Assembly (NCBI GenBank): GCA_964291415.2
Contig: OZ219918.1
Span: 352,001 to 416,000 of the forward strand
DNA from: Alphaproteobacteria bacterium
Lineage (GTDB): Bacteria; Pseudomonadota; Alphaproteobacteria; SP197
DNA: 64,000 nt
Direction: 5' to 3'
Within the stretch, counting starts at the first letter, position 1. The number at the start of each line of letters is the position of its first letter. Position numbers and translations under genes: made by a program. The notes beneath the pieces are model-generated. The model made no database searches. It was not told where the DNA came from and saw only the letters and a list, made by a program, of their open reading frames with translations. Of this stretch, positions 51,862 to 61,066 are shown piece by piece.

Positions 51862-51931
51862 GCCACACGCCAGATGCTGGTTGTGTCCAGTGCCGACACA
51901 GCCAGGGGGTGGGTTGATAGAGCCCGGGTGT

Positions 51932-52018
51932 TGGTGCCTCTGGAGGGACTCGAACCCCCACTTCCGGATGGAAAGCAGATTTTGAGTCTGCCGCGTCTAC
52001 CAGTTCCGCCACAGAGGC
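51932..52018 (-). tRNA. tRNA-Leu (CAA)
   Basis: GCCTCTG acceptor stem, GGAACTGGTAGAC D-arm, GCAGA-CTCAAAA-TCTGC anticodon arm, long variable arm, GGTTCGAGTCC, encoded CCA. Confidence 0.96.
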
Positions 52019-52070: not shown

Positions 52071-52973
52071 TCAATGCCGGCTCGGCTCCCCCAGTACCGC
52101 GGTCTTGAAGACGCTTGAATCCTCCACGTACTCGCCGCCTTCCGGCGCGGCCGGCATGACATCGGCGAACCTGTCCTCGAGCACGACATGGGGGTCCTGC
52201 CCCTCGACCCAGCCGAGGAAGATGTCGTGCAGATGGTAGCCGATCAGGTGCTGGACATCTTCGCGCAGGCCGCGGGCGACGGCGGGTGGAACGGCAAGAT
52301 ACTGGTTTTCTTCCTGGCGCAGCCAGCCGAGGCTGTATCCGGTGATCGCTCCGGTGCGGTGCTCGTTGGCGGTGACATTCTGTCCGCCGCCGTGGAACAC
52401 CGAACCGAGATAGATGAGACACGAACCTTTGGGCATCACGGCGTAGGCGATCCTGGAATTGTCGTCGGGGTAGGTGTCGTCGTCCCAGAGGTGGCTGCCG
52501 GGAACGACATTGGTGGCGCCGTTGTCGACCGTGAAGTCCGACAGCGCCCACATGGTATTGCACAGGCACTGGGGTCCGGGGTGGCGGAAGGGTATGAGGC
52601 CATCGTCGCGATGCACGATCTGGCGTCCCTCGCCGGGAGCGATTCTCACCGCCTGGGTCACGTGAAGATGATAGCGTTCGCAACGGGGCAGCAACAGGCG
52701 ATCCATGACCGCGAGAATCTGCGGCGCCGTGGCGAGTTCCTCTCCGTAGGTCTTGGACTTGGCGATCAGCGAACTCACGCGCCGCGTCTTGCGTCCCCAG
52801 AATTCGCCTTCGCCGAAGTAGGCCCGGCCGAGGTAGGGTTCGAGTTCCTCGTTGACCCGGTCCATGACGTCGTCATCGACGAGACTGCGGAAGATGACCG
52901 CTCCGTCTTCCTCGAGAATGGCCATCGCCTCATCGGTGGATGCATCGCGCTCGAGGGATCTTACCTCGTCCAT
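52071..52973 (-). CDS. Phytanoyl-CoA dioxygenase (PhyH)-family protein
   Basis: VHRDD, NGATNVVPGSHLW, FHGGGQN, GWLRQEENQYL. Confidence 0.9.
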   Translation of the reverse strand: MDEVRSLERDASTDEAMAILEEDGAVIFRSLVDDDVMDRVNEELEPYLGRAYFGEGEFWGRKTRRVSSLIAKSKTYGEELATAPQILAVMDRLLLPRCERYHLHVTQAVRIAPGEGRQIVHRDDGLIPFRHPGPQCLCNTMWALSDFTVDNGATNVVPGSHLWDDDTYPDDNSRIAYAVMPKGSCLIYLGSVFHGGGQNVTANEHRTGAITGYSLGWLRQEENQYLAVPPAVARGLREDVQHLIGYHLHDIFLGWVEGQDPHVVLEDRFADVMPAAPEGGEYVEDSSVFKTAVLGEPSRH

Positions 52974-53414
52974 GCCTGACTCCGTCCTCTCCCTTTCATC
53001 CTACTCCCTCGGCAAAGCCGGGTCACGCCGCCGCCGAACCAGGACGCAGCTCAAGCTCCACGGTCCGCTGCTGTTGAGCCCGCGGAGGCCGCGATGCTCT
53101 GCCGGTCGAAAAACGCCGCTTCAACAACGAGCACGTTCGTGTCATGCCGGGGTGGAAGGCGCGCTGCCCTTCAACTGTGGGATTGGACGGACGACGAACA
53201 CAGCACCAGTGCCTGATCAAGGAGACGTGCGGTACCTGCGCGCTCAAGCACTCTGTGGCGAGAAAATCCACTGGCCGCCGAAGAAGCCGCGGGTTATTCG
53301 AGGGTTCGTTGGCACACGTCGGAAGCGGGCAGCTATTACCAGCCCTTCGCAACGGCGAGAAACGGATAGGAGATGGCGGCCGCCTCAAGCCCGATCAAGA
53401 CCTCAAGCGTTCGC

Positions 53415-54326
53415 ATGAGCCCGGATGACGCCCGAATGGAAGCGGCGATCATCTTCGATTCGCACTTGCCCGATGCGCTTGGCCGCGCTCTCGACTACGC
53501 GGGCGAAGAGGGCTTCGTGGCATCCCTGCCGCAGCTGCTGCGCGCCCGTACCGACGCGCCTTACGACAACGAGATCTGGAACATCCACGCCTTTACCTCC
53601 AACTCCGAGGAAAGCGTGGTCAGGACGCGACAAGACAACCACGTGGCGGTGATTGTCCATGGTGGCGGAATCTTCGCGTCCCCCGAGCGGTTTCGCAAGC
53701 TCTATCGGGCGAGCACCAGCCGCCATTCGGAATTCGGCTTCACCGGCCTGTTCGGCGCCAAGATCAGCGAAGCGGAAGCCTCGGCCCTTCTCGACGGCCG
53801 GCTGCCCGATGGCACCGATATCCCGGTGCTCTCATACGACGAGCTCAAGAGGGCGACCTCCGGTCTGCCGCGGCGCTATGGCGTGGTGCTGGACTTCGAT
53901 ACGGCCAGGACTTCGGCCAACGGCAACATCGCCTTCGATGCTCTCAAGGACGACCCTGTGATGATCGCCCGCGCCGGCGGAGTCGAAGCGGCCGAGACGT
54001 ACCTCGACAGGGCGAGGGATCGAGGGACCGCGAGCGTGATGGGCAGTTGGCACTGCTTCGGCGACGTTGATCCCGATCAGCCCCAGACGCGCGTCTTGTT
54101 CCTCGGCGGCACGGAAGGCGGCGCCGAGATGGAAGTCCGCCGTGCCCTTCCGGACAAGGAACGGGGCTACGTCGGCATCTGGGGGACCCACTACCGGATG
54201 CCGATTGAGGCGGAGTTCGGTATCCGCGGAGATACCAGCATGATCAATGTGGCGCGCTACGTTGCCGTCGCTCCGCGGAACCCGTCGACGAGTTTGCGCG
54301 ACCTTCCCTTCACGGGCTGGACTTGA
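53415..54326 (+). CDS. Hypothetical protein, paralog 1 of a tandem pair
   Basis: Long ORF collinear with the downstream ORF over its whole length; start uncertain (53373, 53415 or 53436). Confidence 0.85.
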   Translation: MSPDDARMEAAIIFDSHLPDALGRALDYAGEEGFVASLPQLLRARTDAPYDNEIWNIHAFTSNSEESVVRTRQDNHVAVIVHGGGIFASPERFRKLYRASTSRHSEFGFTGLFGAKISEAEASALLDGRLPDGTDIPVLSYDELKRATSGLPRRYGVVLDFDTARTSANGNIAFDALKDDPVMIARAGGVEAAETYLDRARDRGTASVMGSWHCFGDVDPDQPQTRVLFLGGTEGGAEMEVRRALPDKERGYVGIWGTHYRMPIEAEFGIRGDTSMINVARYVAVAPRNPSTSLRDLPFTGWT

Positions 54327-54361
54327 TCACAATCCACCATATGCGAAAGGACGACATCACC

Positions 54362-55213
54362 ATGGCCGAGATCAGGATGGAAGCAGAGATCGTCTTCGAT
54401 ACCCACGTTCCAACTGCTTTGCGGCGGGCCCTGGACTATGCCGGCGAGGAGGGTTTCGTGGCGTCCTTGCCGCAGCTGTTGCACGCCCGCGCGAATGCGC
54501 CATACGACAACATCATCTGGAACACCTGGTTCACCTCCTACACGGAGGAGAACGTGGTCACGACCCCCCGGGGGACCCATGTCATCGTCGTGGTCCATGG
54601 CGGGGGAATCTATGCCTCGCCGGAGCGCTTCGAGCGAACCTATCGGGCGAGCGTCGACCGCAACAGCCCGGAGGGGTTTACAGGGCAGTACTCCGGGAAG
54701 CTGTCGCCCAGGGAGGCCAGCGACGTTCTGAATGGCCGGCTGCCGGACGGCACCGAGATTCCGATCTACCCCTTCGACGAATTCAGGCGGGGGATCTCGA
54801 ACCTGCCTCGGCGTTACGGTGTCGTCCTCGACTTCGAACTGGCGCGCCAGTCGACCCGCGGCTTCGATACCTTCGAAGTCCTGAGGGACGAGCCGAACCT
54901 GATCGCCCGCGCCGGCGGCCCGGAACCTTTGGCTGCCTACCTCGACAAGGCGCAAGCCCGCCGCAACACCAGAGTGATGGGCAACTGGCACCCCTACAAC
55001 CGGATCGATCCGAGCCAGCCTCAGACCCGTGTCGTGTTTCTGGCCGGCAATCAAGGCGGCGTGGGATCCGAGGATGACGACGACGATGACTATGGCTACG
55101 ACGCGGAGTATGGCATCGGCGGTGATGCCTGCATTCACAACATGGCCCGTTACGTTGCAGTGGCGCCCCGCGATGTCACGACGAGCCTGCGGAATCTGGA
55201 CTTCGAGACCTGA
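54362..55213 (+). CDS. Hypothetical protein, paralog 2 of a tandem pair
   Basis: AAAGGA RBS; shares RALDYAGEEGFVASLPQLL, VHGGGI.ASPERF, GRLPDGT, LPRRYGVVLDF, QPQTRV and ARYVAVAPR with paralog 1. Confidence 0.88.
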   Translation: MAEIRMEAEIVFDTHVPTALRRALDYAGEEGFVASLPQLLHARANAPYDNIIWNTWFTSYTEENVVTTPRGTHVIVVVHGGGIYASPERFERTYRASVDRNSPEGFTGQYSGKLSPREASDVLNGRLPDGTEIPIYPFDEFRRGISNLPRRYGVVLDFELARQSTRGFDTFEVLRDEPNLIARAGGPEPLAAYLDKAQARRNTRVMGNWHPYNRIDPSQPQTRVVFLAGNQGGVGSEDDDDDDYGYDAEYGIGGDACIHNMARYVAVAPRDVTTSLRNLDFET

Positions 55214-55428
55214 ACGACAGCTCTGAGACGGCCGAGCCGGGGCCACCACCGATCGATTTGTGTCATGCGACGGTCAAGTGCCTCGGTGGTGACCGGATTG
55301 CCGACCGGATGGTGGTCGGAGCGAACGTCGCCGCGGGGCCGTCGCCCCAGCCGTTCGTCGGACTGGAGGTTTACGCCCGGCTGGCGTGGTACAGGTGAAG
55401 TCGACGGGCAGAAGCGTGAGGCCGGGGA

Positions 55429-56256
55429 ATGCGCAACAGACTTTTTGTCCTGGATCTGGGCCGCATGCGCATGGCGCGCCGGAGCTTCCTGGGCGACCTC
55501 GCGAACGACGATCCGGCGGCGGCCGAAATGGTAACCTTCCCGGTCTCCGCCTACCTGATCGATGGGCCAGAGGGGCGCATCCTCTACGACACCGGGTGCC
55601 ACCCCGAGGCGATGACGCCGGACGGTCGCTGGTCTGGGTCCTTTCAAGCTGACTTTCCCTGGGAGCCAGGACCGGACGGCGAAGCCTGCCAGTTGCCCAA
55701 CCGTCTGGAGCAGCTGGGACTCGGCCCCGATGACATCAGGCACGTGGTGCTCTCCCACATGCACTCGGATCACGCCGGGTGCGTCGAGTTCTTCCGAAAG
55801 TCCCAGATCATCGTCCACCGTGCCGAGATGGATCTGGCGCGCGCCTATCACCGGCGCCGGGACCCCGACAGCTCCTATGCCTGGAAGGACGTCGCCCAGT
55901 GGCTCGCGCTGGACCTCGACTGGCGTTTTGTCGAGGATCACGAACGTGAACTGGTCCTGAGCGAGGCAATCACGCTGCTGAACTGGGGAGCCGGCCACTC
56001 GGCGGGAATGCTGGGACTCGAGGTCGATCTGGAAGAGACCGGAGCCGTGATTCTCGCCTCCGACGCCGTCTTCACCCTGGAGAACTTTGGCCCACCGGCT
56101 CGACCCTCGGGATATCCCCTGGCACCGGGCAAGGCCGCGCGCACCGTCGAAACGATCCGCACCCGCGCCCGGCGCCTGAACGCGAAAGTATGGTGCGGCC
56201 ACGACATGGCGCAGTTCATGAACCTCCGGCACTCGACGGAAGGCTGCTACGAGTGA
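55429..56256 (+). CDS. N-acyl homoserine lactonase-family metallo-beta-lactamase (AiiA/AttM-like)
   Basis: LYDTGC, SHMHSDHAG (HxHxDH), GHSAG, LASDA, GHD, STEGCYE C-terminus. Confidence 0.87.
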   Translation: MRNRLFVLDLGRMRMARRSFLGDLANDDPAAAEMVTFPVSAYLIDGPEGRILYDTGCHPEAMTPDGRWSGSFQADFPWEPGPDGEACQLPNRLEQLGLGPDDIRHVVLSHMHSDHAGCVEFFRKSQIIVHRAEMDLARAYHRRRDPDSSYAWKDVAQWLALDLDWRFVEDHERELVLSEAITLLNWGAGHSAGMLGLEVDLEETGAVILASDAVFTLENFGPPARPSGYPLAPGKAARTVETIRTRARRLNAKVWCGHDMAQFMNLRHSTEGCYE

Positions 56257-58390: not shown

Positions 58391-59008
58391 TCAATCCGAG
58401 ACGAGTTCGCTGTCCCAGTAGAGGTAGTCGCGCCAGTGCTCGTGAAGAAAGTTTGGCGGAAATGACTGTCCGTTGCGGCGCAGCTGGAAGGTCGTCGGCG
58501 CAACCGGTCTGGCGAGAGGAAACATCCGGGCCTCGCCCGGCATCCTGTTGCCTTTTGCCATGTTGCAGGTCCGGCACGCCGTCACGACATTGCTCCAGGA
58601 AGCCCGGCCGCCTCGCGAGCGGGGGATCACGTGGTCGAACGTGAGGTCACGGGTCTCGAAGCGCAATCCGCAGTACTGGCATGAGAACCGGTCGCGCAGG
58701 AACACGTTGAACCGGGTGAAGGCCGGCCGCTTGTTGAGCGGGATGTAGCTGCGCAGGGCGATGACGCTGGGAAGCCGCATCTCGAATGACGGCGAGCGGA
58801 CCGTGTGATCGTAGGCGCTCACGGTCTCCACGCGATCGAGAAACACCGCCTTGACCGCCTCCTGCCACGGCCAGACCGAAAGCGGGAAGTAGCTCAGCGG
58901 CTTGTAGTCCGCATTGAGGACCAGAGCCGGACATGTCTGGAGCGATACCACTGGCAGTGTTTCCGGAGGTGAGAAATCCAAAATATTGGCGTCATTCGGC
59001 GGCATCAT
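58391..59008 (-). CDS. HNH endonuclease
   Basis: ALVLNADY, RDRFSCQYCG, DHVIPRSRGG, WSNVVTACRTCN; start uncertain. Confidence 0.9.
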   Translation of the reverse strand: MMPPNDANILDFSPPETLPVVSLQTCPALVLNADYKPLSYFPLSVWPWQEAVKAVFLDRVETVSAYDHTVRSPSFEMRLPSVIALRSYIPLNKRPAFTRFNVFLRDRFSCQYCGLRFETRDLTFDHVIPRSRGGRASWSNVVTACRTCNMAKGNRMPGEARMFPLARPVAPTTFQLRRNGQSFPPNFLHEHWRDYLYWDSELVSD

Positions 59009-60483: not shown

Positions 60484-60858
60484 TCAGTGACAGGTTTCTG
60501 CCAGGCGCGCGAAATCGCTGTCCGATGTTTCGAGAGTGGCCCCGTGAGACCGGGCACAGGCAGCGATCAGGATGTCCGTAGCAGGCACGGTGACTCCATG
60601 CGCCCTGGCTCGCCGGGCCATATCGTAGGCCATGGTCCAGACCCGGTCATCCACGTCGAGGCTTGGAAGTGTCCTTGCGAACTCCCGAAGTGCCTTGCGC
60701 TCCCGTTCTCCGCGGGCGCCGTTCCACAACTCGAGCTGCACCGGTGGGCACCAGCAGGCGTGACCTCCGGTGAGTGCGGCTATGACACGCTCCCGCACGG
60801 CCGGGTCTCCGTCAGTCCGGAGCAAGTGGATCCAGCTTGATGTATCGATCAGAATCAC
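60484..60858 (-). CDS. vapC: VapC PIN-domain toxin
   Basis: ILIDTS, LEL, ATDILIAA and SDSDF acidic PIN residues. Confidence 0.9.
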   Translation of the reverse strand: MILIDTSSWIHLLRTDGDPAVRERVIAALTGGHACWCPPVQLELWNGARGERERKALREFARTLPSLDVDDRVWTMAYDMARRARAHGVTVPATDILIAACARSHGATLETSDSDFARLAETCH

Positions 60859-60861
60859 GGA

Positions 60862-61066
60862 TCAACGCCGACGGCGCTGGGCCTGAAGTTCCTCTTGCGT
60901 CATCAGATTCTCGCACGTTCCCGCATAGTCGACCAATTCTGGCCATGCGCATGCGACGGTTGAAATCCGCGATGGCGATGACAACGGCCTCGCGCTTCGT
61001 CCGCGCGTTTGTGAAGCGGATTGCATCCTCAAGCTCGGAATCCGGAATATCGATGGTGGTTTTCAT
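60862..61066 (-). pseudogene. vapB: VapB antitoxin with an apparent +1 frameshift near 60943
   Basis: MKTTIDIPD...TKREAV RHH N-terminus; removing one base gives MAELVDYAGTCENLMTQEELQAQRRRR*, ending 3 nt before vapC. Confidence 0.75.

Follow-up and report, generated by a model that had tools for sequence, protein, structure and literature searches.

Introduction

The window analysed here, a stretch of 64,000 nucleotides from an alphaproteobacterial genome (assembly GCA_964291415.2, contig OZ219918.1, positions 352,001 to 416,000), carries two tandem genes, A and B, whose products share a scaffold and differ sharply at one C-terminal loop. The locus raises the question of whether this loop is rewritten by a diversity-generating retroelement (DGR) or has been fixed for a function of its own. 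We found that A and B have the C-type-lectin (CLec), DGR-target fold of the AvpA subclass, that their loops are under purifying selection, and that scans of the genome detected neither a template nor a match to Avd. We propose, with a probability of roughly 45%, that A and B are fixed-loop AvpA-type paralogues without an acting DGR and probably bind a cationic amine, either a polyamine or an N-methylated amine, in the cytoplasm. The genes and segments concerned are as follows.

53415-54326, + strand: gene A, 303 amino acids (aa), AvpA-subclass CLec-fold protein of the long-loop (THYR) subfamily; match to AvpA with E 4.1e-10
54099-54269, + strand: counterpart in A of the AvpA variable region, running from F229 (equivalent to the non-variable F185 of AvpA) to the beta5 strand RYVAV; placed by alignment to 5IOO and by conservation
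54123-54209, + strand: flagged loop of A, inside that counterpart
54362-55213, + strand: gene B, 283 aa, AvpA-subclass protein of the acidic-loop subfamily
55037-55162, + strand: counterpart in B of the AvpA variable region, running from F226 to RYVAV
55061-55102, + strand: flagged acidic loop of B, inside that counterpart

Results

The gene pair and its fold

The two open reading frames (ORFs) lie on the same strand, 35 nucleotides (nt) apart, with alternative ATG starts of gene A at 53436 or 53373. The products are 56% identical across 295 columns (E 3e-113), with a 15-residue gap in the loop and a single-residue gap elsewhere; the earlier note on this DNA was exact in describing tandem paralogues and in quoting their loop sequences, the long indel between A and B being the loop. 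Neither protein had a Pfam match at E ≤ 1, and NCBIfam gave only noise below cut-off. In agreement with that note, which had seen no signal peptide, no twin-arginine translocation (Tat) leader was found by a pattern scan of the two subfamilies or, in A and B themselves, by eye. Nearly identical contigs were found in sponge and coral-reef metagenome runs.

AvpA (PDB 5IOO) is the DGR variable protein of a Nanoarchaeota-related archaeon (Handa et al., 2016; PMC5006420), and its fold, including the AvpA-specific inserts, was matched by both A and B. Three published motifs, GXXVVVYAH, HPXXXPFXG and RFXGV (PMC5006420), occur in B as variants at aligned positions, not letter for letter: GTHVIVVVH and EPNLIARAG, placed by alignment, and RYVAV, placed from its structural range. 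The aromatic residue at the base of the AvpA pocket, F185, aligns with F229 of A and F226 of B; phenylalanine occupies this position in 133 of 218 bacterial genes and hence not in every subfamily. A and B have the core C-type-lectin topology in common with the FGE-type CLec proteins of DGRs (TaqVP, PDB 5VF4; Mtd; TvpA), and they showed neither a match to the FGE-sulfatase profile nor close structural likeness to that type. The earlier surmise of a CLec, DGR-target fold was thus confirmed and narrowed to the AvpA subclass, the fold found not being that of a known enzyme unrelated to CLec, which the note had named as the contrary outcome. Its suspected DPANN link also held by way of AvpA, and the archaeal relatives include a Nanobdellota cluster.

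Conservation of the loops

The loop had been called hypervariable; it differs between A and B, yet is conserved inside each orthologous group. Across 119 homologues of B, mean identity was 83% in the whole segment versus 77% in the scaffold, and 73% in the 14 residues of the flagged loop, and the acidic loop was present in all 119 homologues listed. For A, the core GYVGIWGTHYRMP gave a mean identity of 87% versus 70% among the 98 best-scoring of 120 homologues, and the whole loop one of 63% across all 120, sister subfamilies included; most of the 120 listed keep the loop core G-Y-I/V-G-I-W-G-T-H-Y-R.

The ratio of non-synonymous to synonymous differences per site (pN/pS) was 0.27-0.32 in the flagged loops, 0.24-0.28 in the whole segments and 0.22-0.24 in the scaffold (uncorrected, with pS near saturation), so that no excess of non-synonymous variation was found in the variable region of A or B by this comparison of loops with scaffold. 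Selection on the loops is slightly relaxed and still purifying. Between strain contigs, the A loop showed four synonymous and two non-synonymous changes (one V-to-I, one P-to-R), and the B loop was identical in contig X3 from an independent study. In the likely source run, both loops lay within unbroken contigs with 0 differences, a comparison of contigs, which drop rare variants.

Search for a DGR acting on A and B

The genome scanned comprises 4.44 Mb in five contigs (100% complete, 9% contaminated), with the window on contig C2. Across it, blastn found no near-copy of either loop, matching only the paralogue and remnants. When eight 60-nt windows were compared with the whole genome in an ungapped, adenine-tolerant search for a template, 12 non-adenine mismatches remained at best; four scaffold control windows left 13-15. 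No Avd match was found in this genome. Its four RVT_1 matches all lie on contig C1, and classification covered three of them: L001 exceeds the cut-off for group II intron maturases, and L002 and L003 are fragments scoring best with the same model (L004 is the fourth match). The first of these (L001:442-2739) encodes a group II intron maturase continuing into an IS110-family transposase in one open frame of 765 aa, probably an insertion. The beta5 strand that is encoded in AvpA by the initiation of mutagenic homing sequence is present in A and B, and the inverted repeats nearby are short and at chance level.

A template test at the level of loci (75 nt) detected none for 139 genes in 59 GTDB loci and was positive for two of 151 genes in 77 metagenome loci, both being the same low-GC gene, in L084 and L085. 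These loci (L084:1170-4155, and L085) hold a complete archaeal-type DGR of 33% GC, whose target has 39% identity with B and 37% with A; the last 16 loop residues align with those of B without a gap, and the fixed G, hydrophobic, G and R positions match. Unlike A and B, this target is accompanied by a template with 14 mismatches over 75 nt, 13 of them at adenine, and by a reverse transcriptase (RT) directly downstream. Because the test found this complete DGR with a target 39% identical to B, it can be said to work, and the kinship to be close. The RT has a C-terminal HTH_40 domain, the element adjoins Elp3, and no ORF of at least 70 aa lies between target and template. An RT match was absent from 19 of 44 carrier genomes, many of them incomplete, and among the matches listed no family gene has an RT within 10 kb except in L054, where the RT is a group II maturase.

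The fold and loop position as in AvpA, the close relative in a working DGR and the four RT matches would fit active or remote DGR targets that are rewritten from a template elsewhere in the genome, and remote targets are documented in cyanobacteria (PMC7517822). However, with no template and no Avd in the genome, RTs on another contig and three of them closest to group II intron maturases, loops of unequal length under purifying selection, the mainly synonymous strain changes in the A loop, and carrier genomes in which no RT was matched, this explanation is almost certainly wrong. The earlier note had seen no RT or template repeat, which holds genome-wide for the template, the RTs being confined to contig C1. 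Its proposal of remote targets is not supported; that of proteins domesticated and diversified by duplication is, with the correction that the duplication is ancient and not local. As for homologues near DGR RTs, for which it had suggested a search, the relative in L084/L085 has one, and none lies within 10 kb of the family genes listed for the carrier genomes.

Gene neighbourhood and erosion of the operon

The main functional clue, overlooked in the earlier note, is the amine transport and catabolism neighbourhood together with the decayed enzyme genes that flank the pair. The flanking features are as follows.

52071-52973, - strand: PhyH-family dioxygenase, divergent; the family recurs in related loci, this gene is not their best match in the genome, and the link is weak
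53093-53360, + strand: remnant of an S-adenosylmethionine (SAM) methyltransferase, the gene that precedes the A type in related loci; two frames, one stop; tblastn E 5e-15 and 1e-7 versus the L023 protein
55267-55416, + strand: remnant of a DAO-family flavin adenine dinucleotide (FAD) oxidoreductase, which follows B in related loci; start and end pieces, C-terminal E 1e-8, N-terminal E 7e-4
55429-56256, + strand: metallo-beta-lactamase-fold hydrolase, closest to acyl-homoserine lactone (AHL)-lactonase models, below cut-off; orthologues follow A-B-DAO

The window thus holds an eroded copy of the order methyltransferase, A, B, oxidase, hydrolase, with A and B intact between two remnants. The full order is seen in L023; in L024, the run A, B, oxidase, hydrolase is preceded by two arginase-family genes and the gene of a binding protein. 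The window hydrolase has orthologues in both (79% and 66% identity, respectively). A Pot operon on contigs C3 and C4 keeps the oxidase and has an internally deleted B gene (C3:16307-16420 and C4:81746-81859; L021 and L022) between the PotD-like gene and the DAO-family oxidase. The 14 kb compared around it occurs twice with 98.7% identity, a duplicate that may reflect strain duplication in the assembly, given the contamination noted above. B and the oxidase each survive in one of two loci, as would be expected if both serve one pathway.

Functionless relics in a decaying operon would be consistent with the flanking pseudogenes, the deletion of another B copy in this genome and the 10 of 22 same-genus genomes that gave no match to the B query. 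With both frames intact, however, with mostly synonymous differences among strains and orthologues, and with about 2,000 homologues for each of A and B, it is very improbable that the pair are such relics.

In related loci, neighbours were grouped into 149 clusters, and annotation of 65 proteins covered the largest 43 and some of the others. The recurring genes encode a PotD-like binding protein, a Pot-type permease and ATPase, and IclR, along with enzymes comprising SAM methyltransferase, homocysteine S-methyltransferase, MTHFR, aldo-keto reductases, DAO-family oxidase, cupin, PhyH and metallo-hydrolase. Anaerolineae copies are flanked by MttB and corrinoid proteins, and TonB receptors lie upstream of the Tat forms. 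A Pot, agmatinase-like or methyl-transfer neighbour occurs in 43 of 61 GTDB loci and a TonB neighbour in 15 of 61, counts that come from largely orthologous clusters of related organisms and are neither independent nor set against a background rate. Of 47 non-edge A-type genes, 46 are followed by a family gene. In L031 and L035, the conserved locus is interrupted between family genes by insertions of McrBC-type and AAA genes.

Size and descent of the family

Searches with A and B gave 2,045 and 1,930 clusters at 90% identity, sets that probably overlap, and there were 515 clusters at 50% identity; source names, where seen, were 'hypothetical protein' or none. Sorting 218 non-redundant full-length genes by loop motif gave 13 types, with six genes unassigned. 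Carrier genomes have 1-10 copies, and none of 400 other genomes of the class sample had a family gene. A and B belong to different old subfamilies and each groups with orthologues from other classes, which dates their duplication as ancient. Of 67 genes in the F/G/H/I/L subfamilies, 40 have a Tat-like leader, as against none of 143 genes of the A, B, C, D, E, J and K types (by pattern, with some misses visible by eye).

In a quick, unrooted tree of 99 rows, the 58 bacterial rows form one clade (SH-aLRT 98) beside seven eukaryote-type domains and apart from 34 archaeal-type rows, the label 'archaeal' being taken from low-GC contexts and one Atlas cluster that is 100% Archaea, and 'eukaryote' from one EukProt record (P0242). 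The eukaryote-type homologues are P0242, P0243, P0291, P0294 and P0296; P0242 and P0243 each fuse two domains and carry leader peptides recognised by eye, the first domain having a long B-like loop and the second a short archaeal-like one. An archaeal-type AvpA relative (L149:5953-6831) lies among glycolytic genes, with no template found within 6 kb.

Discussion

Starting from the observed fold, loop position, purifying selection, absence of a detectable template and Avd, and recurrent neighbourhood, we infer the following scenario. An archaeal DGR target would have been transferred once and then duplicated. A Pot-type ATP-binding cassette transporter would bring the amine in, and the pocket of B would bind it and retain it for the FAD oxidase and the methyl-transfer enzymes encoded alongside. 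A, always beside another family member, is likely to be a partner subunit with a second pocket. The pocket of B is acidic and aromatic across the clade. Acidic and aromatic pockets suit polyamines and betaines. The prediction of an A+B complex scored 0.46 versus 0.06 for the best control, with contacts agreeing to at least 91% and partner pLDDT (predicted local distance difference test) of at least 81; the mark for this score was reached by 116 of 157 solved pairs, as against 2 of 215 mismatched ones, values of at most 0.60 occurring in 18 of the 157 solved pairs and both mismatched ones. The heteromeric pair suggested in the earlier note is thus weakly supported by this score and by the adjacency of A-type and family genes.

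Several observations weigh against the amine-binding proposal. Model confidence is lowest in the loops (pLDDT about 60 for residues 231-250 of B and <50 for 227-280 of A), leaving the pocket geometry unseen, and the A loop is not acidic overall (6.3 D/E, 4.5 K/R). The amine ligand is deduced from gene neighbourhood and pocket composition; the neighbour counts share their descent, as stated above, and the neighbours do not reach the curated cut-offs of NCBIfam for PotD, PotB/C, agmatinase and pipecolate oxidase, which leaves their substrates putative. With the B query, 11 of 12 matching same-genus genomes showed only a B-type gene, and a heterodimer is therefore not obligatory for B. The operon is eroding in this genome, where the local role of A and B may have shifted. 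Finally, as the tree is unrooted, descent from archaea to bacteria is a direction that we infer.

It is possible, though doubtful, that the family members are instead enzymes, forming a new CLec-fold catalyst that acts on the imported amine or its polymer; the paralogues would then have different substrates and compartments, with Tat-exported forms in the periplasm behind a TonB receptor and A and B in the cytoplasm. The interleaving of family genes with enzymes in operons, the Tat-like leaders and TonB neighbours of some subfamilies, and eleven invariant polar residues (S35, R43, N50, E62, E63, H79, R89, E118, R183, H210 and Q221) would agree with this, as would the catalytic CLec folds of FGE and sulfoxide synthase (PMC5006420). 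However, no enzyme family was matched, no loop Cys or His is common to all subfamilies, and the strand equivalent to that of H79 lies between two inserts (PMC5006420), suggesting a structural role. The archaeal-type relatives conserve most of these polar residues just as well, and binding was ranked above catalysis for this reason.

Protein-binding adaptors or scaffolds, whose fixed loops would hold neighbouring enzymes, the IclR regulator, the transporter or each other, are unlikely. Mtd binds a protein through the equivalent site (PMC5006420), and the constant company of A-type genes and the weak complex score point the same way. However, partner enzymes vary among loci while the B loop is constant, both flanking enzyme genes have decayed here while A and B are intact, and exported paralogues could not meet cytoplasmic partners.

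Around binding by A and B, a wider scenario can be drawn tentatively, and we hold it to be rather improbable as a whole: one archaeal DGR target may have escaped its retroelement, frozen its variable region and, within marine bacteria, diversified into 13 or more subfamilies with fixed pockets, either cytoplasmic or Tat-exported, and fused and secreted in eukaryotes, forming the core of an undescribed polyamine/methylamine scavenging pathway and possibly a new class of CLec-fold enzymes. If a frozen archaeal DGR target does work in a scavenging pathway, a protein of adaptive repertoires would have been turned to primary metabolism, and AvpA-type pockets of DPANN archaea could bind small molecules.

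The homologues reported for AvpA are one marine and a few non-DGR archaeal proteins (PMC5006420). The A/B clade differs from AvpA in its bacterial host, its lack of a detected template, DGR RT or Avd, its longer, selection-fixed loop, its short conserved tail versus a 46-residue extension, and its expansion into a large paralogue family in metabolic operons with Tat-exported and two-domain forms. Cyanobacterial DGRs likewise have duplicated target domains at a distance from the RT, for which fixation following optimisation has been proposed; however, those genomes retain the DGR, many paralogues keep template homology, and the domains are grafted on signalling proteins (PMC7517822), whereas the A/B clade has no detectable template clade-wide and lies in catabolic operons. 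The CLec fold (PMC5006420) and RT-less target paralogues (PMC5006420, PMC7517822) were already known, while our literature search turned up no account of an AvpA clade that is bacterial, linked to metabolism and in part Tat-exported, AvpA being mentioned once in the accessible text of PMC11661182. A fold can now be named for an unannotated family, without a Pfam entry, of which uncultured bacteria from marine habitats and sponges hold up to 10 copies in a single genome. A probable, as yet undescribed pathway of amine catabolism is also flagged in these organisms. Fixed, selected versions of an AvpA-type pocket, in operons that hint at the ligand class, make the ligand question testable with soluble proteins.

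Other features of the window

By eye, a tRNA-gene-like stretch lies at about 51870-51960 (- strand), just beyond a flavin monooxygenase gene and about 1.5 kb from A, and is a possible insertion site. An HNH-nuclease-like ORF (58391-59008, by eye) lies between Coq7-like and CoA-transferase-like genes. At 60484-61060 (- strand), a PIN-domain-like ORF (60484-60858) and a short upstream ORF have, by eye, the layout of a VapBC-type toxin-antitoxin pair.
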